Source: a virus (lineage: Duplodnaviria > Heunggongvirae > Uroviricota > Caudoviricetes). From it: a stretch of 11,159 nucleotides of DNA. The stretch lies in IMG/VR virus record IMGVR_UViG_2516143027_000007, one strand, 5' to 3'. Position numbers and translations under genes: made by a program. The notes beneath the pieces were generated by a model. It did no database searches and had not been told where the DNA came from. It was given only the letters and a program-made list of their open reading frames with translations. Positions 1 through 11,159 of the stretch are shown here, piece after piece (position 1 is the first letter of the stretch; every line of letters starts with the position of its first letter).

Positions 1-567
1 ATGCTTATTGGCTATGTACGCGTGTCAACAAATGACCAGAACACCGATTTGCAACGTAATGCACTGAACTGCGCGGGATGTGAGCGGATTTTTGAGGACA
101 AAATCAGTGGCACTAAGTCCGACAGACCGGGGCTGAAAAAACTGCTCAGGACACTATCGGCAGGAGACACGCTGGTTGTCTGGAAGCTGGACAGGTTGGG
201 GCGCAGTATGCGGCATCTTGTTACGCTGATAGAAGAGTTGCGCCAGCGTGGTGTGAATTTCAGAAGCCTGACTGACAGTATTGATACCAGTACCCCAATG
301 GGCCGTTTCTTTTTTCATGTCATGGGTGCCCTGGCTGAAATGGAACGCGAACTGATAGTTGAACGTACCAGGGCGGGGCTGGCTGCAGCTCGTGCTAAAG
401 GCAGAGTAGGTGGACGCCGTCCTAAGTTGACCACCGAACAGTGGGCACAGATTGGACGTTTACTCGAGGCCGGAGAATCAAGACAGCGTATTGCACTGAT
501 TTTTGATGTAGGCGTTTCTACCATTTATAGAAAATTTCCGGCAAATAAGAGCAATGAATCTCCCTGA
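1..567 (+). CDS. Serine-recombinase DNA invertase, Gin/Pin/Cin/Hin family (188 aa, complete)
   Basis: N-terminus MLIGYVRVSTNDQNTDLQRNAL with catalytic Ser in the RVST motif; near-collinear with phage Mu Gin as I recall it (TLVVWKLDRLGRSM, SLTDSIDTS, MGRFFFHVMGALAEMERELI, GRxGGRxPKLT); C-terminal HTH (ALIFDVGVSTIYRK). ATG is at position 1, so any upstream recombination site is outside the window. Confidence 0.93.
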   Translation: MLIGYVRVSTNDQNTDLQRNALNCAGCERIFEDKISGTKSDRPGLKKLLRTLSAGDTLVVWKLDRLGRSMRHLVTLIEELRQRGVNFRSLTDSIDTSTPMGRFFFHVMGALAEMERELIVERTRAGLAAARAKGRVGGRRPKLTTEQWAQIGRLLEAGESRQRIALIFDVGVSTIYRKFPANKSNESP

Positions 568-609
568 ATCAGCATTATTTTGATTATCCTTGCAAGCAGA
601 CAAATACCG

Positions 610-709
610 TCATTTTGTGTGAATAACGGTACAACTGCGCTTAGCTGTTTGTCAGGCACAATCACTTCAACATAGGGCGAAGCCTAATCCAATCAGGAGG
701 TTCGCCACT
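610..709 (+). promoter_or_regulatory. P2-type late promoter (PF-like) for the FI operon, with an Ogr/Delta activator site
   Basis: Exact TGT-N12-ACA dyad at 616-633 (TGTgtgaataacggtACA), the known binding motif of P2 Ogr-family activators (centred near -55 in P2 late promoters). This would put the start site near 675-685. SD caggagg at 694-700 precedes the FI ATG at 710. The -10/-35 hexamers are not confidently assignable. Confidence 0.7.
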
Positions 710-1882
710 ATGGCTCAGGATTACCACCACGGGGTGCGCGTTGTTGAAGTCAACGAAGGCACCCGATCCATTACCACGGTGAGCACCGCCATCGTGGGTA
801 TGGTCTGCACGGGCGATGATGCCGATGCAAAAATGTTTCCTCTTAATAAACCCGTGCTGATCACTGATGTGCTGACTGCCAGCGGTAAAGCGGGTGAGTC
901 CGGTACTCTGGCCCGTTCGCTGGATGCCATCGCTGACCAGGCAAAACCCGTGACCGTTGTTGTGCGTGTGCCGCAGGGTGAAACGGAAGAAGAAACCACG
1001 ACCAATATCATCGGCGCAGTGACTGCTGAAGGTAAAAAAACAGGCATGAAAGCTCTGTTATCTGCCCAGTCACAGCTCGGCGTTAAACCGCGCATTCTCG
1101 GCGTGCCAGGCCACGATAACAAAGCCGTTGCGACTGAGTTGCTGAGCGTGGCGCAAAGCCTGCGTGGGTTTGCTTACCTGTCAGCGTATGGCTGCAAGAC
1201 GGTACAGGAGGCGATCACTTACCGTGAAAACTTCAGCCAGCGCGAAGGGATGCTGATCTGGCCTGACTTTACGGGCTGGGACACGGTGCTGAATGCCGAA
1301 GCAACGGCATATGCCACCGCCCGTGCGCTTGGTCTGCGTGCCAAAATTGATGAGCAGACTGGGTGGCACAAAAGCCTGTCCAACGTGGGCGTGAACGGTG
1401 TCACCGGAATTTCTGCAGATGTGTTCTGGGATCTGCAGGACCCGGCAACCGATGCGGGTCTGCTGAACCAGAACGACGTCACCACGCTTGTGCGTAAAGA
1501 CGGTTTCCGCTTCTGGGGTTCCCGCTGCCTGAGTGATGACCCGCTCTTTGCCTTCGAAAACTACACCCGCACGGCGCAGGTGCTGACGGACACAATGGCA
1601 GAAGCGCACATGTGGGCAGTGGACAAACCGCTGAACCCGTCGCTGGCGCGCGACATTATCGAGGGCATCCGCGCCAAAATGCGCAGCCTGGTCAGTCAGG
1701 GGTATCTCATTGGTGGTGATTGCTGGCTGGACGAGTCGGTGAACGACAAAGACACTCTGAAAGCCGGAAAACTCACCATCGACTACGACTACACGCCAGT
1801 GCCGCCACTTGAAAACCTGATGTTGCGTCAGCGCATCACCGATCAGTACCTGGTGAATTTCGCCAGCCAGGTCAGCGCGTAA
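710..1882 (+). CDS. FI: Contractile tail sheath protein (P2 gpFI homologue), 390 aa
   Basis: N-terminus [19 protein letters not shown] and blocks such as [51 protein letters not shown] match my recollection of P2 FI; good SD; first gene after the late promoter. Confidence 0.95.
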
Positions 1883-1891
1883 GGGGACAAC

Positions 1892-2407
1892 ATGGCTTTA
1901 CCACGCAAATTAAAACATCTGAACCTGTTTAACGACGGGAACAACTGGCAGGGGATCGTTGAGTCGCTGACGCTGCCGAAATTCACCCGCAAATATGAGA
2001 AGTATCGCGGCGGCGGTATGCCGGGGGCGGTGGATGTGGATCTGGGACTGGATGACAGTGCACTGGATACAGAATTTTCCATTGGTGGTACGGAACTGCT
2101 GCTGTTTAAGCAGATGGGCAAAGCCACGGTGGATGGCATCCAGCTGCGCTTTACCGGCTCTATCCAGCGTGACGATACCGGGGAAGTGCAGGCCGTGGAG
2201 CTTGTGGTGCGTGGACGTCACAAAGAAGTGGATTCCGGCGAGTGGAAGACGGGCGAAAGCAACACCACCAAAGTGACCAGTACCAACAGCTACGCGAAGC
2301 TGACCATCGATGGTGAGGTGCTCTATGAAGTGGACCTTATCAACATGGTGGAAATTGTGGACGGTGTGGACCTGATGGAAGCGCACCGCAACGCCCTCGG
2401 CCTCTGA
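1892..2407 (+). CDS. FII: Tail tube protein (P2 gpFII homologue), 171 aa
   Basis: Immediately follows FI with SD aagggga 5-11 nt upstream of the ATG; size and position typical for a P2 tube protein; MALPRKLKHLNLFNDG N-terminus. Confidence 0.93.
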   Translation: MALPRKLKHLNLFNDGNNWQGIVESLTLPKFTRKYEKYRGGGMPGAVDVDLGLDDSALDTEFSIGGTELLLFKQMGKATVDGIQLRFTGSIQRDDTGEVQAVELVVRGRHKEVDSGEWKTGESNTTKVTSTNSYAKLTIDGEVLYEVDLINMVEIVDGVDLMEAHRNALGL

Positions 2408-2418
2408 TGTATCTGAAC

Positions 2419-2436
2419 GGCGCGGGATACCGCGCC
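2419..2436 (+). other. GC-rich stem-loop between FII and E (7-bp perfect stem GGCGCGG / CCGCGCC, 4-nt loop GATA); no U-tract follows
   Basis: Seen directly: ggcgcgg-gata-ccgcgcc at 2419-2436, 12 nt after the FII stop and 26 nt before the E start. Function is inferred. Confidence 0.5.
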
Positions 2437-2461
2437 AGAACCCAATTTACAGGACAGCAAA

Positions 2462-2764
2462 ATGAGTGATAAGCAGACTGAAAAGACCATTCAACTGGAT
2501 ACCCCCATCAAGCGCGGTAAAACAGAAATCACCGAAATTGTGCTGCGTAAACCGCAGTCCGGTGCGCTGCGCGGTACACGCCTGCAGGCCATTATGGATA
2601 TGGATGTGAACGCGATGATGACCGTGATCCCCCGCATCTCCAGTCCGGCACTGACTGCACAGGAAATTGCAGAGATGGACCCGGCAGATCTCACTGCCAT
2701 GTCGGTTGAGGTTGTCACTTTTTTGTTGAAGAAGTCGGTGCTTGCCGGTTTACCGACAGCCTGA
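2462..2764 (+). CDS. E: Tail assembly chaperone gpE (zero-frame product), 100 aa
   Basis: Small ORF between the tube and tape-measure genes, SD agga 8 nt upstream; slippery heptamer near its 3' end, the conserved arrangement for tail assembly chaperones. Confidence 0.85.
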   Translation: MSDKQTEKTIQLDTPIKRGKTEITEIVLRKPQSGALRGTRLQAIMDMDVNAMMTVIPRISSPALTAQEIAEMDPADLTAMSVEVVTFLLKKSVLAGLPTA

Positions 2765-2898
2765 CGGTTGACGATCTGGTGGCTGATATCGCCACCATCT
2801 TTCACTGGCCGCCATCCGTTACTGACGTTATGCCGCTGACCGAAGTGCTGGAATGGCGGTATAAAGCGATTCAGAGAAGCGGGGCCAACGATGAGTGA
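2462..2898 (+). CDS. E+E': gpE+E' fusion made by programmed -1 ribosomal frameshift at T-TTT-TTG (2719-2725); the -1 frame then runs open to TGA at 2896-2898
   Basis: Hand-checked: zero-frame codons act-ttt-ttg at 2717-2725; shifting -1 and reading from 2725 (gtt gaa gaa gtc ...) gives 57 sense codons with no stop before 2896. The extension overlaps the T start (ATG 2891). Same architecture as P2 E/E' and lambda G/GT. Confidence 0.8.
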
Positions 2899-5800
2899 TA
2901 ATAACCTGCGCCTGCAGGTCATTCTTAATGCGGTTGACAAACTCACCCGCCCATTCCGTGCTGCACAGGCCAGTTCGAAAGAGCTGGCTGGCGCAATCAG
3001 AAACTCCCGTGACGCATTAAAGCAACTCAATCAGGCGGGTAACAGCCTGGAAAAATTTCGCAAGCTGCAAGCCGATAACAAGAAGTTAGGCGACAGGCTG
3101 AACTATGCCAGACAGAAGGCTAATTTGCTTAGCTCTGAGCTGGAGTCGATGGAACAACCATCACAACGGCACCTTGTGGCTTTAGGTCGGCAAACGCTGG
3201 CAGTCCAACGCCTGGAAGAACAACAAAAATATTTGCAGAAGCAAACGGCGCTTGTGCGTGCAGAACTGTACCGGGCGGGAATTTCTGCGAAAGATGATGC
3301 GGGAGCAACTGCCCGTTTAGCCCGTGAAACATCACGTTATAACCAGGAACTGTTGAAACAGGAGGCGCGGCTGAAGCGACTGGGGGAAGCTCAGCGCAGG
3401 ATGAATGCAGCGCGTGCCAGTTATGCCCGTTCGCTGGAGGTGCGCGATCGCATCGCAGGAGCCGGAGCCACCACCACGGCTGCAGGGCTGGCAATGGGTG
3501 CGCCAGTGATGGCGGCAGTAAAAAGCTATACCAGCATGGAAGATGCCATGAAAGGTGTGGCAAAGCAGGTCAATGGTCTGCGTGACGATAATGGCAATCG
3601 CACTGCGCGTTTTTATGAAATGCAGGATGCCATCAAGGCTGCCAGCGAACAGTTACCGATGGAAAATGGTGCTGTGGACTTCGCCGCACTGGTTGAAGGT
3701 GGTGCGCGCATGAACGTCGCAAACCCTGACGACAGCTGGGAAGACCAGAAACGTGACCTTTTGGCCTTTGCCAGCACGGCAGCAAAGGCGGCAACAGCTT
3801 TTGAGCTGCCAGCGGATGAACTGTCAGAAAGTCTGGGGAAAATCGCCCAGCTCTACAAAATCCCTACCCGCAATATTGAACAGCTCGGTGATGCGCTGAA
3901 CTATCTGGATGATAACGCCATGTCGAAAGGGGCAGACATTATTGATGTCATGCAACGTCTGGGCGGTGTGGCTGACCGTCTGGATTATCGTAAAGCGGCG
4001 GCACTGGGTTCCACCTTTCTGACACTGGGCGCTGCGCCGGAGGTTGCAGCCAGTGCAGCAAACGCGATGGTGCGTGAATTGTCCATTGCCACCATGCAAA
4101 GCAAGAGTTTCTTTGAAGGGATGAATCTGCTGAAACTCAATCCTGAAGTGATTGAAAAGCAGATGACGAAGGATGCGATGGGAACTATCCAGCGTGTGCT
4201 GGAGAAGGTGAACGCGCTGCCGCAGGACAAGCGTCTGTCTGCCATGACCATGTTGTTTGGTAAAGAGTTTGGCGATGACGCGGCGAAACTGGCAAACAAC
4301 CTGCCGGAACTACAGCGCCAGCTAAAACTGACAGCGGGCAATGATGCGCTCGGTTCCATGCAGAAAGAGTCCGACATCAACAAAGACTCACTTTCTGCTC
4401 AGTGGTTGCTAGTCAAAACCGGAGCGCAGAACACCTTCAGCAGCCTGGGCGAAACGCTGCGTCAGCCGCTGATGGATATTCTGTACACGGTGAAAAGCAT
4501 TACGGGGGCGTTGCGCCGCTGGGTGGAAGCTAACCCGGAACTGACGGGCACACTGATGAAAGTAGCGGCTGTTGTGGCTGCGGTTACCGTAGGCCTCGGC
4601 ACCTTAGCGGTGGCGCTGGCTGCAGTGCTGGGGCCGCTGGCAGTGATCCGTCTGGGATTCTCTGTGCTGGGTATCAAAACGTTACCTTCCGTTACTGCAG
4701 CAGTAACTCGAACCAGCAGCGCGTTGTCCTGGCTGGCTGGCGCACCACTGGCACTGCTGCGACGCGGGCTTGCTTCATCGGGCAACGCAGCGGGTTTACT
4801 TACTGCTCCGTTGTCATCTTTGCGTCGCACGGCATCACTGACGGGGAATGTCCTGAAAACTGTAGCAGGTGCGCCGGTTGCACTTTTGCGGTCTGGATTA
4901 TCCGGTTTACGTGCTGTTGCTGTGATGTTTATGAATCCACTGGCAGCACTACGCGGTGGGCTGGCTGCCGCAGGCGCGGTGCTGCGTGTGCTCGCATCCG
5001 GCCCGCTGGCGATGTTGCGCATTGCCCTGTATGCCGTATCTGGTCTGTTAGGTGCTCTGCTCAGTCCGATAGGTCTTGTGGTTACTGCACTGGCGGGCGT
5101 GGCGCTGGTTGTCTGGAAATACTGGCAACCCATCACCGCATTTCTCGGTGGCGTGGTGGAAGGATTCAAAGCGGCGGCAGGTCCCATCAGTGCAGCATTC
5201 GAACCACTTAAGCCTGTGTTTCAGTGGATTGGCGACAAAGTGCAGGCGTTGTGGGGCTGGTTTACTGATCTGCTGACGCCCGTTAAGTCGACCTCTGCCG
5301 AACTGCAGAGCGCAGCGGCAATGGGGCGACGATTCGGGGAGGCACTGGCGGAAGGGCTGAATATGGTCATGCATCCGCTGGACTCCCTGAAATCCGGCGT
5401 TTCCTGGTTGCTGGAGAAACTCGGTATTGTCAGTAAAGAGGCTGCAAAGGCGAAACTGCCGGAAAGCGTGACGCGTCAGCAACCTGCGACGGTGAATGCA
5501 GACGGTAAAGTGATGATGCCATCAGGTGGTTTCCCATCATGGGGATATGGTTTTGCGGGGATGTATGACAGCGGTGGGTATATCCCGCGCGGGCAGTTTG
5601 GCATTGTCGGTGAAAACGGGCCTGAAATTGTCAACGGCCCGGCAAACGTGACCAGCCGGAGAAATACAGCTGCACTGGCTGCCGTTGTTGCCGGAATGAT
5701 GGGTGTTGCTGCCGCGCCAGCAGAGCTTCCACCGTTGCACCCTTTGGCATTTCCCGCGAAAGGCGGTGAAGCGATGGTGAGTCGCGCAGCCACTGTGCCG

Positions 5801-5968
5801 CCCGTTCAACGGATTGAGGCACCGACGCAGATCATCATTCAGACGCAGCCAGGACAAAGTGTGCAGGATATTGCGCGGGAGGTGGCCCGCCAGCTTGATG
5901 AACGTGAACGCAGGCTGAAGGCAAAAGCCAGGAGTAACTACAGCGATCAGGGGGGATACGACGCATGA
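2891..5968 (+). CDS. T: Tail tape measure protein (P2 gpT homologue), 1025 aa
   Basis: Very long ORF at the tape-measure position; coiled-coil-like N-terminal region rich in Q/R/E/L/A, central repeat block, hydrophobic segment (GLLGALLSPIGLVVTALAGVALVVW), Gly-rich C-terminal region; stop overlaps the U start (ATGA at 5965-5968). Confidence 0.9.
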   Translation: MSDNNLRLQVILNAVDKLTRPFRAAQASSKELAGAIRNSRDALKQLNQAGNSLEKFRKLQADNKKLGDRLNYARQKANLLSSELESMEQPSQRHLVALGRQTLAVQRLEEQQKYLQKQTALVRAELYRAGISAKDDAGATARLARETSRYNQELLKQEARLKRLGEAQRRMNAARASYARSLEVRDRIAGAGATTTAAGLAMGAPVMAAVKSYTSMEDAMKGVAKQVNGLRDDNGNRTARFYEMQDAIKAASEQLPMENGAVDFAALVEGGARMNVANPDDSWEDQKRDLLAFASTAAKAATAFELPADELSESLGKIAQLYKIPTRNIEQLGDALNYLDDNAMSKGADIIDVMQRLGGVADRLDYRKAAALGSTFLTLGAAPEVAASAANAMVRELSIATMQSKSFFEGMNLLKLNPEVIEKQMTKDAMGTIQRVLEKVNALPQDKRLSAMTMLFGKEFGDDAAKLANNLPELQRQLKLTAGNDALGSMQKESDINKDSLSAQWLLVKTGAQNTFSSLGETLRQPLMDILYTVKSITGALRRWVEANPELTGTLMKVAAVVAAVTVGLGTLAVALAAVLGPLAVIRLGFSVLGIKTLPSVTAAVTRTSSALSWLAGAPLALLRRGLASSGNAAGLLTAPLSSLRRTASLTGNVLKTVAGAPVALLRSGLSGLRAVAVMFMNPLAALRGGLAAAGAVLRVLASGPLAMLRIALYAVSGLLGALLSPIGLVVTALAGVALVVWKYWQPITAFLGGVVEGFKAAAGPISAAFEPLKPVFQWIGDKVQALWGWFTDLLTPVKSTSAELQSAAAMGRRFGEALAEGLNMVMHPLDSLKSGVSWLLEKLGIVSKEAAKAKLPESVTRQQPATVNADGKVMMPSGGFPSWGYGFAGMYDSGGYIPRGQFGIVGENGPEIVNGPANVTSRRNTAALAAVVAGMMGVAAAPAELPPLHPLAFPAKGGEAMVSRAATVPPVQRIEAPTQIIIQTQPGQSVQDIAREVARQLDERERRLKAKARSNYSDQGGYDA
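4738..5200 (+). repeat. Degenerate in-frame tandem repeat inside T: about 7 units of 63-66 nt (21-22 aa), each starting with Pro and following P-[LIV]-x-x-L-R-x-G-L
   Basis: Counted directly: Pro codons at nt 4745, 4808, 4874, 4937, 5003, 5066, 5129 give spacings 63, 66, 63, 66, 63, 63 nt (T residues 619, 640, 662, 683, 705, 726, 747). Motifs: GAPLALLRRGL, TAPLSSLRRT, GAPVALLRSGL, NPLAALRGGL, GPLAMLRIAL, SPIGLVVTAL, QPITAFLGGV. Confidence 0.75.
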
Positions 5969-6450
5969 TGATGGTGCTGGGATTGTACGTGTTTATGCTG
6001 CGCACTGTGCCGTATCAGGAACTGCAGTATCAACGCAGCTGGCGACATGCGGCAAACAGCCGGGTCAACCGACGTCCATCCACGCAGTTTCTGGGACCGG
6101 ACAACGACATGCTGACGCTTTCTGGTGTTCTTATGCCGGAGATAACGGGCGGCAGACTGTCGTTGCTGGCTCTGGAGCAGATGGCAGAACAGGGAAAAGC
6201 ATGGCCCCTGATTGAAGGCAGCGGCACGATTTACGGCATGTATGTGATTGAGGGACTAAATCAGACTAAAACGGAGTTTTTCCGCGATGGTATGCCGCGC
6301 CGGATTGAGTTCACCCTGTCGCTCAAACGGGTGGATGAATCCCTGTCCGATATGTTCGGTGATCTCAGTGCGCAGCTGAATAATCTGCAGGACATGGCAA
6401 CGTCTGCCTTAAGCGATATCAGTAAAACGGTGGGAGGGCTGCTGTCGTGA
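5965..6450 (+). CDS. U: Tail protein gpU homologue, 161 aa
   Basis: Start ATG overlaps the T stop (translational coupling); MMMVLGLYVFM N-terminus and blocks LSGVL-PE-TGG, AWPL--G-G-IYGMYVI, RVDESL resemble P2 gpU as I recall it. Confidence 0.88.
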   Translation: MMMVLGLYVFMLRTVPYQELQYQRSWRHAANSRVNRRPSTQFLGPDNDMLTLSGVLMPEITGGRLSLLALEQMAEQGKAWPLIEGSGTIYGMYVIEGLNQTKTEFFRDGMPRRIEFTLSLKRVDESLSDMFGDLSAQLNNLQDMATSALSDISKTVGGLLS

Positions 6451-7547
6451 ATTTCAGCTCTGAACTGCTTAACAAAGGTAACAAAACTCCCGCATTCAGC
6501 ATCAGTATTGAGGGCAGGGATATCACTACTGTCCTGGATAATCGCCTGATGAGTCTGACGCTGACGGACAATCGGGGCTTTGAAGCGGACCAGCTTGATC
6601 TGGAGCTGGACGACGCCGACGGAAAAATCGTGCTGCCGCGCCGTGGGGCTGTCATTACGCTGGCGCTGGGCTGGAAGGGACAGCCGCTTTTCCCGAAAGG
6701 GGCATTCACGGTGGACGAGATTGAACACACTGGCGCACCGGACCGCCTGACTATCCGGGCGCGAAGTGCTGATTTTCGTGAAACGCTGAATACCCGCCGT
6801 GAAAAGTCGTGGCACAAGACCACCGTTGGGGAAGTGGTGAAGGAAATAGCTGCGCGGCACAAGCTGAAGATGGCACTGGGTAAAGACCTGTCGGATAAGC
6901 CCGTGGAGCATATAGACCAGACTAATGAGAGTGACGGCAGTTTTCTGATGCGGCTGGCGCGCCAGTACGGAGCTATTGCGTCGGTGAAAAATGGCAATCT
7001 GTTATTCATCCGGCAGGGACAGGGTAAAAGTGCCAGCGGTAAACCACTGCCGGTGATCACTATCACACGTAAGGACGGCGACAGTCACCGCTTTACCCTG
7101 GCAGATCGCGGAGCCTATACGGGCGTAATTGCCAGTTGGTTGCATACCCGCGAACCCGCGAAGAAAGTAAGCACAACGGTGAAGCGTAAGCGCAGGACTA
7201 AGAAGCAGAAGAAAGAGCCGGAAGCGAAGCAGGGCGATTACCTGGTGGGTACGGATGAAAACGTGCTGGTACTTAATCGCACTTATGCCAACCGGAACAA
7301 CGCCGAACGGGCAGCGAAAATGCAGTGGGAACGCCTGCAACGCGGCGTTGCATCATTCTCGCTACAACTGGCGGAAGGGCGGGCAGATCTCTACACAGAA
7401 ATGCCTGTGAAGGTCAGTGGCTTTAAACAGCCGATAGATGATGCGGAATGGACTATTACCACCCTGACGCATACTGTCAGCCCGGATAACGGTTTTACGA
7501 CCAGTCTGGAGCTTGAAGTGAAGATTGATGATTTCGAAATGGAATGA
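6447..7547 (+). CDS. D: Late control / tail protein gpD homologue, 366 aa (GTG start overlapping the U stop)
   Basis: GTG at 6447 overlaps the U stop as GTGA; position between U and ogr as in P2; size close to P2 gpD; basic K/R-rich internal stretch. Confidence 0.88.
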   Translation: MNFSSELLNKGNKTPAFSISIEGRDITTVLDNRLMSLTLTDNRGFEADQLDLELDDADGKIVLPRRGAVITLALGWKGQPLFPKGAFTVDEIEHTGAPDRLTIRARSADFRETLNTRREKSWHKTTVGEVVKEIAARHKLKMALGKDLSDKPVEHIDQTNESDGSFLMRLARQYGAIASVKNGNLLFIRQGQGKSASGKPLPVITITRKDGDSHRFTLADRGAYTGVIASWLHTREPAKKVSTTVKRKRRTKKQKKEPEAKQGDYLVGTDENVLVLNRTYANRNNAERAAKMQWERLQRGVASFSLQLAEGRADLYTEMPVKVSGFKQPIDDAEWTITTLTHTVSPDNGFTTSLELEVKIDDFEME

Positions 7548-7569
7548 TTCTTCGCAATGGAGAACTTTT

Positions 7570-7637
7570 AAGTTTGCAAAATGGAATAATGCGGTATCAT
7601 TATTGTGAATTTAGCAAAAATGGGGAGAACTCGAAAA
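7570..7637 (+). promoter_or_regulatory. Possible sigma70 promoter and SD for ogr (TTGCAA at 7575-7580, TATCAT at 7596-7601, SD GGGAGA at 7623-7628)
   Basis: Hexamers read by eye in the 90-bp D-ogr spacer; the 15-nt spacing is short, so weak. P2 ogr is known to have its own promoter. Confidence 0.3.
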
Positions 7638-7856
7638 ATGATGATTTGCCCACTGTGTGGAAGTGCCGCCCATACTCGCAGCAGTTTTCAGGTATCTTCA
7701 TTGACCAAAGAGCGTTACAACCAGTGCCAGAACATTAACTGCAGCCATACTTTTGTTACCCATGAAACTTTTGTTCGTTCGATTGCAACGCCAAAAGAGT
7801 CAAATCCGGTTCAGCCGCATCCAATGAAATCAGGACAGGTGGCGCTCTCTCTTTGA
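7638..7856 (+). CDS. ogr: Ogr-family zinc-finger late transcription activator, 72 aa
   Basis: MMICPLCGSAAHTR...ERYNQCQNINCSHTF carries the Cys-x2-Cys...Cys-x4-Cys zinc motif and closely resembles P2 Ogr (72 aa). I place the start at ATG 7638, not at the 83-aa ORF start 7605, because of the GGGAGA SD and the match to P2 Ogr length. Its TGT-N12-ACA target is at 616-633. Confidence 0.85.
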   Translation: MMICPLCGSAAHTRSSFQVSSLTKERYNQCQNINCSHTFVTHETFVRSIATPKESNPVQPHPMKSGQVALSL

Positions 7857-7936
7857 CGCTGCCGCCATTTTGTCGCCATCGTTAAAAAACAGTACTTCTA
7901 ACATCATGATTTTAAACAGCTTAAATTTCAGGCAAC

Positions 7937-7979
7937 AAAAAACCCATCAACCTTGAACCGAAATGGCGGGGTTGATGGG
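7937..7979 (-). terminator. Putative intrinsic terminator for minus-strand transcription (downstream of ybjL)
   Basis: 10-bp perfect stem CCCATCAACC (7943-7952) / GGTTGATGGG (7970-7979) with a 17-nt loop, flanked by an A6 run at 7937-7942 that is a U-tract on the minus strand. It lies 114 nt from the ybjL stop; the large loop lowers confidence. Confidence 0.45.
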
Positions 7980-8092
7980 CTCCACAAAATGGGGACATCA
8001 AAGAAAAGCAGTGGCACTAATTAAGACTGATGCCCTGCGGAAAAGTTCTGCGGTTGTGCAAAAAAAATTTCATTTTCAGGGCAACTTCAGTT

Positions 8093-9778
8093 TTATCCTA
8101 ATCCTGGCCATACCATGACGATGATTGTCCCTGCCAGCGTCAGCAGGACGTTGGCGATTGCATAGGTGCCCGCATAGCCCAGCGCCGGGATGTTACTGCG
8201 AGCTGTATCACTGATGATCTCCATTGCCGGCGCGCAGGTGCGTGCGCCCATCATTGCGCCGAACAACAGTGCGCGGTTCATTCGCAATACATAAGCACCG
8301 AACAAGAAACAGATAACCACTGGCACAAGACTGACAATCAATCCGGCAATCAACATCTGACCGCCAATCGCGCCCAGGCCGTTATTAATACCGCTACCGG
8401 CGCTCAGACCAACGCCTGCCATAAACACCATTAAGCCGAACTCTTTCACCATGCTTAATGCACCCTGCGGAATGTAACCGAAGGTCGGGTGGTTAGCGCG
8501 CATAAAGCCCAGCATAATTCCGGCGAATAACAACCCGGCAGCGTTCCCCATGCCGAAACTGAATGTGCTGAACTGGAAGGTGATCATCCCGATCATCAGC
8601 CCAATAACAAAGAAGGCGCAGAATGCCAGCAAGTCAGTGACCTGGCTGTGAATCGAGATAAAGCCGATGCGATCGGCGATGGTTTTTACGCGACGGGCAT
8701 CGCCGCTGACTTGTAAAACGTCACCTTTGTTAAGCACGACGTTGTCATCTATCGGCATCTCAATCTGGCTACGAATGACGCGGTTAAGGAAGCAACCGTG
8801 ATCGGTCAACTTCAGTTGTGCGAGACGTTTGCCAACGGCGTTATGGTTTTTAACGACCACTTCTTCAGTGACGATACGCATGTCGAGAAGGTCACGATCG
8901 AAAACTTCTTTGCCGTTACGGAAGCTGGGATCGAGTCGTGCGTGGGCGTCGGGATAGCCTACCAACGCTATTTCATCGCCCATTTGTAGCACAGCATCAC
9001 CGTCTGGATTTGCCAGAATCCCGTTACGTCGAATACGTTCAATGTAGCAGCCAGTTTGTCGATAAATACCCAGTTCACGCAGATTTTTGCCGTCGGTCCA
9101 GGCCACCAGCTCCGGGCCGACGCGGTAGGCGCGGATCACCGGTAAATAAACCTTACGGTTGGCATCAGTGTCCAGGCCACGTTCGCGGGCGATTTGCTGG
9201 GCGCTGGTCTGTAAGTCCTGATGCTGCAATTTCGGCAAGTAACGCGCACCAACAATCAAACTCACCAGACCGATTAAATAGGTTAAGGCATACCCGAGGC
9301 TCAGATTATCCAGTGCCAGTGAGAGCTGCCTGCTTTCCATGCCGGAATGACGCAGTGTATCGCCAGCACCGACCAGAACCGGTGTCGACGTCATAGAGCC
9401 AGCTAACATACCGGCCGTCAGGCCAATATCCCAGCCAAACAGCTTACCTAACCCTAAGGCGATCACCAGCGCACTGCCAACCATCACCAGTGCTAACATT
9501 AGGTAATTTTTCCCATCGCGAAAAAAAATGGAAAAAAAGTTCGGTCCGGCTTCGACCCCGACGCAGAAAATAAACAGCATAAAGCCAAGATTAAGCGCGT
9601 CGGTGTTAATGCTGAAATGTTGTTGGCCTAATAACAGCGATACGACTAAAACGCCAATGGAATTACCCAGTTGGATCGAACCAAGTCGTAATTTCCCGAG
9701 ACATAGCCCAAGCGCGAGGACCACAAATAATAACAGAATGTAATTCCCATTTAACAATTCGGCGACGTTTATATTCAC
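8093..9778 (-). CDS. ybjL: Putative transporter YbjL (AAE / YidE-YbjL family with central RCK_C/TrkA-C domains), 561 aa
   Basis: 561-aa polytopic membrane protein beginning [24 protein letters not shown], matching E. coli YbjL in length and N-terminus as I recall it; hydrophobic N- and C-terminal halves flank a soluble middle. GTG start at 9776-9778 with no obvious SD. Confidence 0.88.
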
Positions 9779-10047
9779 GGAGGCTAACTTCTTGTTTACT
9801 AGTAAGCTGTTGAAAGAAATGGTAATTTACGATAATGTTTTTTACCAGAATTCAGGGCGCAGATTCATTCAGCGCACCTAAACGATAGTAAAGTAACAAT
9901 ATATTTTACTAGTGTAATCACATTAGGTATCAACGGCTATATGAATTGCGTTGGCCTATATTAGCATGGAATGCGAAGCGGCTTTATCTTACTGAACGCC
10001 ACACTGGCGAAAAATGTGTTCGATAGACGCAGTGTCAGGAGGAACGA
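9779..10047. promoter_or_regulatory. AT-rich divergent intergenic region presumably holding the ybjL and ybjM promoters
   Basis: 269 bp between two divergently oriented starts; no specific hexamers assigned. Confidence 0.3.
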
Positions 10048-10425
10048 GTGAAACATAAACAACGTTGGGCGGGGGCAATCTGCTGTTTTGTCCTCTTCAT
10101 TGTGGTGTGTCTTTTTCTGGCGACGCACATGAAAGGCGCTTTTCGGGCTGCCGGGCATCCTGAAATCGGTTTGCTATTTTTCATTCTTCCTGGTGCAGTT
10201 GCCAGCTTCTTTTCACATCGTAGAGAAGTCCTGAAACCTCTGTTTGGCGCAATGCTGGCGGCACCCTGTTCGATGCTCATTATGCGGCTGTTTTTTTCAC
10301 CGACGCGCTCATTCTGGCAAGAGCTGGCATGGTTATTAAGTGCGGTGTTCTGGTGTGCGCTGGGGGCATTGTGTTTCTTATTTATCAGTAGTTTGTTTAA
10401 ACCACAGCACAGAAAAAATCAATAA
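10048..10425 (+). CDS. ybjM: Inner membrane protein YbjM, 125 aa (GTG start)
   Basis: SD caggagga at 10035-10042 precedes GTG 10048; small, strongly hydrophobic protein MKHKQRWAGAICCFVLFIVVCLFL; conserved position between ybjL and grxA. Confidence 0.85.
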   Translation: MKHKQRWAGAICCFVLFIVVCLFLATHMKGAFRAAGHPEIGLLFFILPGAVASFFSHRREVLKPLFGAMLAAPCSMLIMRLFFSPTRSFWQELAWLLSAVFWCALGALCFLFISSLFKPQHRKNQ

Positions 10426-10445
10426 AGCCCTCAACGCGAGGGCTT
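10410..10445 (-). terminator. Intrinsic terminator of grxA (minus strand), overlapping the 3' end and stop of ybjM
   Basis: 8-bp stem AAGCCCTC (10425-10432) / GAGGGCTT (10438-10445), loop AACGC, 10 nt after the grxA stop. On the minus strand it is followed by UUAUUGAUUUUUUC; on the plus strand the tail is not U-rich, so it looks mainly unidirectional. Confidence 0.65.
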
Positions 10446-10454
10446 GTCAGACGA

Positions 10455-10712
10455 TCAGGCGTCCAGATTCTCTTTCGCCCATGCAGCAAAATCGGTATAG
10501 CCGCCGATATGTTGCTGATCGACAAAAATCTGCGGCACGGTTTCTACGGGTTTACCTGCCTTTTGTTGTAGATCTTCTTTAGTGATCCCTTCCGCACGAA
10601 TATCTACATACTGATACTGGAAATCATCGCGTTCATTGCTCAATTTCTCAGCCAGATCTTTTGCACGCACACAGTAAGGGCAACCCGGACGACCAAAAAT
10701 AACGGTTTGCAT
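10455..10712 (-). CDS. grxA: Glutaredoxin 1, 85 aa
   Basis: MQTVIFGRPGCPYCVRAKDLAEKL contains the CPYC active site and matches E. coli Grx1. Start placed at ATG 10712-10710, not the 90-aa ORF start at 10727: the upstream ATG is immediately followed by AGGAGA, which serves as SD 6 nt before the chosen ATG. Confidence 0.9.
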   Translation of the reverse strand: MQTVIFGRPGCPYCVRAKDLAEKLSNERDDFQYQYVDIRAEGITKEDLQQKAGKPVETVPQIFVDQQHIGGYTDFAAWAKENLDA

Positions 10713-10871
10713 TATTTCTCTCCTCATAGATTTATGCCTGTAATGATCACGCTAAAATGTATTCGCTGAAAGTAGGTTTAACCTGTTGCATTAATTGATA
10801 AAAGCTATAACTGTTAAACACAATACAGTGAAAAGTTTTAGACTGAAGGCTCACTTTGCAGAGGGAAGCGT
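10713..10871. promoter_or_regulatory. Divergent grxA / ybjC-nfsA control region (in E. coli K-12 grxA is OxyR-activated and ybjC-nfsA is SoxS/MarA-activated)
   Basis: 159-bp AT-rich spacer between divergent starts. The regulatory assignment is from established E. coli knowledge; individual OxyR or mar/sox boxes were not confidently located by eye. Confidence 0.5.
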
Positions 10872-11159
10872 ATGCGCGCGATCGGTAAATTGCCTAAAAG
10901 CGTGTTGATACTGGAATTTATCGGAATGATGTTGCTGGCGGTGGCGCTGCTGTCGGTAAGCGACTCCCTGTCGCTACCTGAGCCATTTTCTCGGCCAGAA
11001 GTGCAGATTCTGATGATTTTTCTCGGTGTTTTGCTCATGCTTCCCGCTGCGGTGGTGGTTATTCTTCAGGTGGCAAAACGTCTTGCCCCACAGCTGATGA
11101 ACCATCCACCGCAATATTCACGTTCAGAAAGAGAAAAAGATAATGACGCCAACCATTGA
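10872..11159 (+). CDS. ybjC: Small membrane protein YbjC (DUF1418), 95 aa
   Basis: MRAIGKLPKSVLILEFIGMMLLAVALL with two hydrophobic segments; conserved position after grxA; stop TGA at 11157-11159. Confidence 0.85.
   Translation: MRAIGKLPKSVLILEFIGMMLLAVALLSVSDSLSLPEPFSRPEVQILMIFLGVLLMLPAAVVVILQVAKRLAPQLMNHPPQYSRSEREKDNDANH
11143..11159 (+). CDS. nfsA: 5' end of nfsA (oxygen-insensitive NADPH nitroreductase), truncated by the window edge
   Basis: ATG ACG CCA ACC ATT GA = MTPTI(E), matching the NfsA N-terminus as I recall it, in a different frame overlapping the last 17 nt of ybjC, preceded by purine-rich agaaagagaaaaaga. Only 5 codons visible. Confidence 0.5.

Follow-up and report, generated by a model that had tools for sequence, protein, structure and literature searches.

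The analysed stretch of DNA (11,159 nt, referred to below as the window) begins with a gene, at positions 1–567 of the plus strand, which is very probably the invertase gene of a tail-fibre host-range switching cassette carried by a P2-like (Peduoviridae) prophage that resides by rybB/ybjL in E. coli; as a part of the same reading and with the same high confidence, we attribute to this cassette the design of the Mu G segment and the e14 P segment. In the proposed scheme the constant N-terminal part of the fibre gene H would end in a 26-bp crossover site, the inverted partner of which would lie 56–81 bp upstream of the invertase ATG, and two alternative C-terminal exons of the fibre, each with its own assembly gene, would face each other convergently between the sites. 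Dimers of the invertase bound to both sites, together with host Fis bound to an enhancer of approximately 65 bp within the first 90 nt of the gene, would form an invertasome, where both sites would be cut at the central AA/TT dinucleotide, the subunits would rotate by 180 degrees and religation would flip the intervening 1.6–3.5 kb. Such a flip would place the alternative C-terminus in frame behind H, giving progeny phage with one of two receptor specificities. The invertase lies in the interval between genes G and FI, and the sheath operon would have its late promoter directly downstream of it.

Crossover sites and the invertible segment in relatives

A motif scan of positions 1–11159 registered no sequence resembling a crossover site. 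The window starts at the ATG codon of the invertase, which leaves fibre exons and sites outside, and the upstream structure was for this reason read in relatives. One of them, contig 111 of the Logan assembly SRR6112259 (L011), was reached via the exact tape-measure protein; it has 2 mismatches to the window over 11159 nt (99.98% identity) and extends 82 nt upstream of the ATG. This contig begins with CTTCTCCCAAACCAACGTTTATGAAAA and contains, at positions −81..−56 relative to the invertase ATG, the 26-bp right crossover site TTCTCCCAAACCAACGTTTATGAAAA, which coincides in 26 of 26 positions with the e14 site upstream of pinE and has the same build as P1 cixR and Mu gixR (TTCCTGTAAACCGAGGTTTTGGATAA, located 54 bp before gin). 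A crossover site just upstream of position 1, which the first-pass annotation of this DNA had anticipated from the window, is thus present in its 99.98% identical relative.

Both sites were found in all 11 intact relatives scanned (L001–L010 and L024), which are 97–98% identical to the window and several of which are inserted at the same ybjL/rybB locus. The right site starts there at −81, and the left one, TTCTCCCAAACCAAGGTATG(C/T)GAGAA (CTCTCCC... in L008), lies in inverted orientation inside the tail-fibre gene H, 1.6–3.5 kb upstream. These relatives include the closest complete E. coli genome of RefSeq, which is 98.1% identical over the whole window and carries the full cassette. Between the sites the relatives encode, on the plus strand, a C-terminal part of the fibre together with a tail-fibre assembly gene; a further assembly gene and another C-terminal exon follow on the minus strand, so that the overall order is H-G-G′-H′-invertase-FI. 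An invertible fibre segment with inverted sites and alternative exons, which had been predicted upstream of the window, was therefore found in each of the 11 intact relatives, and both of its orientations occur among them.

Orientations were compared directly in L005 and L009, which align collinearly on the outer side of both sites and in reverse orientation between them. Inversion performed in silico at the central dinucleotides gave an uninterrupted alternative frame of H in every case tried, with the length of the product changing between 473 and 502, 502 and 465, 473 and 509, 473 and 471, or 501 and 466 amino acids. Coexistence of orientations was documented by paired-end sequencing and PCR for two other P2-like prophages, those of EPEC strain E2348/69 (Goldberg et al. 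2014, PMC4272514), and one of the repeats reported there, TTGTTTGGGAGAAG, has the same half-site as the crossover sites of our relatives. In the strain studied here the enzyme is likewise predicted to flip the segment instead of performing resolution, and a change of host range would be the consequence of such switching. That the segment is intact in this particular genome is suggested by L011, which covers only 82 bp of it, and by the relatives with 97–98% identity.

Practical consequences also arise for assembly and annotation. Assemblies of short reads are prone to interruption at the crossover site, L011 with its near identity to the window being one example. Its break falls exactly at the first base common to both inverted sites, which is consistent with what a culture of mixed orientation would give in a de Bruijn assembly. 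As a proof of mixed orientation this break was nevertheless rejected, since the e14 locus shares about 29–30 nt and could interrupt the assembly likewise. Annotation pipelines, in turn, split the chimeric fibre gene and produce “pseudogenes”. In RefSeq (PGAP) gene H is divided into two fragments or pseudogenes in L001 (4993–6414) and L024 (1549–3054), while its frame is uninterrupted in both of them (473 and 501 aa, respectively), and the chimeric nature of the fibre seems to have led the annotation astray here. In L003 three site-like sequences were found (6538–6563, 6618–6643 and 9920–9945), with a segment of 3.4 kb and longer fibre exons; such a layout could allow more than two arrangements, similarly to the four-variant P2-like locus of EPEC (PMC4272514). 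Minus-strand cargo of the relatives also varies in the interval between S and V, outside the window: an unannotated protein of 176 aa in L004 (3949–4479), a DUF6216 protein in L005 (3680–4486) and an AAA/SMC-like ATPase with an HNH protein in L006 (2880–4761). The S–V interval represents one more variable hotspot in these prophages.

The structure of relatives also bears on the possibility that the segment has been lost or scrambled in the present genome, leaving the intact gene as a locally functionless remnant that acts, at most, in trans. The window itself holds no sequence upstream of the invertase, and a precedent for such an orphan exists at the same locus in E2348/69 (L015), where the prophage is devoid of tail-fibre assembly genes and its V-W-J-I-H block is inverted; the sites are hybrids there, TTCCAAGTAACCTACGTTTATGAAAA being located at −81 and TTCTCACATACCTACGTTTAGCATAA at the truncated gene S. 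The right site of L011, however, is canonical and non-hybrid, with its inner half TTCTCCCAAACC intact, and the full cassette is present in 11 other relatives, including the closest complete genome. Based on this data we consider the loss of the segment improbable and retain the complete fibre-switching cassette as the preferred explanation.

The E2348/69 prophage (NC_011601.1, 872571–886470) is peculiar in its own right. Its two sites, at 1161–1186 and 5920–5945 of this fragment, are both hybrid with a TA centre, gene S is truncated, a cargo gene and V-W-J-I-H (N-terminal part of H) are inverted, and the segment with tfa genes and fibre exons is missing. This rearrangement looks as if the invertase had acted aberrantly on a secondary site within or close to S, with subsequent loss of the segment.

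The invertase and its putative enhancer

The first gene of the window is an intact open reading frame of 188 codons, with its ATG at base 1 and a stop codon ending at 567. Its product belongs to the Pin/Cin/Gin (“Din”) family of small serine recombinases and shows the corresponding architecture, with the catalytic serine S9 inside the motif YVRVST and a helix-turn-helix at the C-terminus. Two Pfam domains were detected, Resolvase (PF00239, residues 3–135, E 2e-53) and HTH_7 (PF02796, residues 138–181, E 1e-15). Fis-dependent invertases typically have a catalytic serine at approximately residue 9–10, a C-terminal helix-turn-helix and a length of about 185–195 amino acids. Top matches among solved structures were two entries of Mu Gin, with 312 and 308 bits over residues 1–184 (the best one being 3uj3, E 8e-93), while resolvases of gamma-delta and Tn3 scored 102–122 bits in the same search (gamma-delta, 122 bits, E 2e-34). 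The best PHROG was phrog_125, “DNA invertase” (E 9e-101). Pairwise identity amounted to 85% with e14 PinE, 84% with the SEN8 invertase, 77% with P1 Cin and 75% with Mu Gin, the reference genes being taken from their own records and all alignments being free of internal gaps.

Residues conserved only in invertases that depend on Fis and the enhancer have been described for Hin: K47, R48 and K51 in helix B, as well as Q151, R154 and L155 in helix 1 of the DNA-binding domain (McLean et al. 2013, PMC3798978). The counterparts of these enhancer and Fis contacts in our protein are K46, K47, R50, Q149, R152 and L153, and all six positions are aligned with Gin and Cin. The numbering of Hin was transferred via Gin/Cin and the Hin sequence. 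Against NCBIfam only sub-threshold matches were obtained (XisF, Mpi and Ccr), leaving the protein without a specific model there, and the search with PADLOC defence models gave no family at E ≤ 0.01. Three antisense reading frames (12–170, 154–318 and 315–524, all on the minus strand) were dismissed as chance ORFs, as they overlap the strongly conserved frame of the invertase.

Judged by its sequence, the product of 1–567 is a DNA invertase and not a resolvase. The first-pass annotation had described it as a complete Gin/Pin/Cin-type invertase ending 142 bp before FI, and these coordinates proved to be exact (stop at 567, ATG of FI at 710); the grouping with resolvases, which it had named as the contrary outcome, did not take place, as follows from the scores of Gin and gamma-delta and from the 75–85% identity to PinE, Cin and Gin. 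The idea that the Z/fun position is occupied by a resolvase or transposon-type serine recombinase, or by an anti-phage cargo unrelated to fibre switching, can draw on the role of this interval as a cargo hotspot in P2-like phages and on the generic Resolvase/HTH_7 architecture common to resolvases, but it is hardly credible given 312 bits for Gin against 122 for gamma-delta resolvase, the invertase-specific contact residues, the lack of a PADLOC defence match, the constant neighbourhood of convergent fibre/tfa genes flanked by inverted sites, and the fact that neither a res-like site nor transposon ends were seen in 1–709.

Another question is whether the fibre-switching invertase can also serve other loci. 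Since its crossover site is identical to that of e14 and the enzyme itself is 85% identical to PinE, it might conceivably work in trans and flip segments elsewhere in the host, for instance the e14 P segment or that of a second P2-like or Mu-like prophage; we regard this as rather unlikely. If true, it could influence host phenotypes, and a gene in the Z/fun position would then contribute indirectly to phage defence. A block of T2 adsorption mediated by StfE2 has been attributed to PinQ-driven inversion of the P segment (PMC12529663).

In gin, cin and hin the recombinational enhancer acts in cis from within the 5′ portion of the invertase gene itself. The GenBank record of P1 labels nucleotides 19–90 of cin “enhancer of Cin-mediated C-segment inversion”. 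Positions 1–130 of the window align with cin and gin without gaps, and 19–90 match the annotated P1 element; on the basis of this homology and of synonymous conservation, a Fis-dependent enhancer is putatively assigned to 19–90. Two Fis-like sites were found within it: site I (TGTCAACAAATGACC, 23–37), which is nearer to the crossover site, and site II (GCGCGGGATGTGAGC, 71–85). Both are matches to a degenerate consensus, their centres are 48 bp apart, and approximately 98 bp separate the centre of site I from that of the crossover site upstream. According to published geometry of the Hin system, its 65-bp enhancer has a Fis site at each end and is located about 100 bp from the hix site, and the spacing observed here together with the distance to the crossover site fits this arrangement.

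The degenerate Fis consensus, reportedly given by Hubner and Arber as KNNYRNNWNNYRNNM, is weak if taken alone, with 0.82 matches per 100 nt; synonymous conservation was examined for this reason. In a comparison of six invertase genes, synonymous-codon identity was 0.73 in site I and 0.64 in site II, against 0.37 for the stretch separating them and 0.39 for the remainder of the gene. The value of neither site was reached by any of 144 downstream six-codon control blocks, with the reservation that the six sequences are not independent and that 5′ ends of genes can be constrained otherwise. Between the sites the TAATG and ATTT(G/A) tracts are kept, as mentioned for the hin enhancer (PMC3798978). 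This conservation at the level of DNA supports the presence of a Fis-dependent enhancer at 19–90, and inversion by this enzyme would accordingly be expected to require Fis. The first-pass annotation had suggested that a Fis-dependent enhancer may lie within the first ~150 nt and proposed a search of 1–200 for paired Fis sites about 48 bp apart; both expectations are borne out at the sequence level, by the homology of 19–90 with the P1 enhancer and by the pair at 23–37 and 71–85.

The G–FI interval and the rest of the window

In P2 gene G is followed by a terminator, then by fun(Z) on the minus strand, the activator site of promoter pF and FI. The invertase fills the interval that holds fun(Z) in P2, in agreement with what had been claimed for it initially, the P2 record indeed having fun(Z) between G and FI. 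This interval is a known cargo hotspot of P2-like phages, and the presence of a DNA invertase in it has already been noted (bioRxiv 10.1101/2024.10.15.618418). Of the features expected from Z/fun cargo, the gene has the position between G and FI, and no defence protein was recognised in it by PADLOC. Among 5426 complete E. coli genomes, 672 contained the junction between invertase and FI, with no less than 80% of a 1900-nt query covered; it occurs also in Escherichia phages Cartapus and 500465-1, in Klebsiella phage KP12 and in many Klebsiella prophage records; more distant versions are present in Salmonella phage SEN8 and Erwinia phage ENT90. Exactly the same protein was registered in 9692 indexed blocks of a collection of assemblies and on 1000 contigs or more, where its names include “DNA invertase Pin-like site-specific DNA recombinase”. 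Thus, the feature is already known, being a common fibre-switching invertase cassette in a published location. For novelty this is mainly a negative result: a host-range switching module of textbook type in a well-populated position of P2-like genomes. In mining the G–FI hotspot of P2-like phages for defence systems, the invertase and the fibre exons should be treated as machinery of structural variation and not as cargo.

The spacer between the invertase and FI (568–709, plus strand) is 142 nt long, contains the ribosome-binding site of FI (AGGAGG, 695–700) and is nearly identical in phage Cartapus. A perfect TGT-N12-ACA dyad, the candidate activator site for Ogr, was found in it at 616–633 (plus strand), centred 85 bp ahead of the FI ATG; the corresponding distance for the annotated pF activator site of P2 is 83 bp, and P2 transcripts begin 57–58 bp downstream of that site. 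The motif shows no enrichment across the window (5 occurrences found, 3.2 expected), and the pF region of P2 gave no convincing alignment with the spacer, so that the assignment of the promoter rests on the dyad and its distance from the FI ATG. No plus-strand terminator was predicted in 568–709, and a generic scan of 1–800 for sigma-70 promoters and terminators returned nothing useful on the plus strand. An Ogr-dependent late promoter of the FI operon may plausibly be located in this spacer. The initial statement that only the late promoter lies between the two genes is plausible in view of the dyad with its P2-like geometry, the promoter itself being deduced from position.

The remaining part of the window comprises the right arm of the P2-like prophage and the flanking chromosome of E. 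coli. The plus strand carries the tail sheath gene FI (710–1882, Pfam Phage_sheath_1), which opens the late F operon, and after it the tail tube gene FII (1892–2407, Phage_tube), E (2462–2764), the tape-measure gene T (2891–5968), U (5965–6450), D (6447–7547) and ogr (7638–7856). Gene E is followed by a short ORF of the GpE family, equivalent in the annotation of relatives to 2779–2898, and together they represent the E/E′ pair with programmed −1 frameshift that is usual in P2 upstream of the tape-measure gene. For ogr the mechanically called ORF starts from GTG at 7605 (83 aa), whereas relatives are annotated from ATG at 7638 (72 aa), which gives a better fit to Ogr_Delta. Directly past the prophage end lies the gene of the host small RNA RybB (7934–8012, minus strand; Rfam RF00110, 105 bits). 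Homology with prophage-free K-12 starts at 7922, which is 12 nt beyond the 3′ end of rybB, and the attachment core of the prophage therefore probably overlaps the rybB terminator. Chromosomal genes ybjL (8093–9778, minus), ybjM (10048–10425, plus), grxA (10455–10727, minus) and ybjC (10872–11159, plus) complete the window.

Comparison with known systems

The layout of the cassette is the same as in element e14 of E. coli K-12, where stf and tfa on the plus strand are followed by tfa and stf′ on the minus strand and then by pin on the plus strand. As in the cassette considered here, the ATG of the e14 invertase is about 30 bp past the last minus-strand ORF, and the DNA of tfa genes and invertase in the relatives is 84–90% identical to the e14 P segment and pinE. 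The difference is in the surroundings: e14 is a defective lambdoid element with mcrA after pinE, whereas here the genome is P2-like and the invertase is followed by the probable late promoter and the sheath gene. Phage Mu has the same order as well, Sc - gixL - [Sv U / U′ S′v] - gixR - gin, and its invertase is also transcribed away from the segment. The enhancer of Mu is placed within the 5′ end of gin (Kahmann et al. 1985, in the form in which this work is cited in PMC3798978). Mu differs in the central dinucleotide of gix, which is GA against AA here, in its fibre exons and in having com/mom downstream of gin. The cin gene of P1 points towards the segment, with cixL overlapping its 3′ end, while in our case, as in Mu and e14, the gene has the site upstream of it.

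From fun(Z) of P2, which is a 1.6-kb lysogenic-conversion gene of the minus strand (T5 exclusion) with its own terminator context, the content of the interval differs in being a recombinase on the plus strand, with the neighbouring fibre genes as the ones it serves. From other P2-like phages and prophages bearing the invertase (Cartapus, 500465-1, KP12, the SEN8/Fels-2 group, ENT90 and the prophages of EPEC E2348/69) there is essentially no difference: gene order is identical, several of them are 96–98% identical to the window, and in Cartapus the gene is annotated as “DNA-invertase, Mu phage Gin invertase homolog”. The cassette is thus a mobile fibre switch common to Mu, P1, e14 and P2-like phages.
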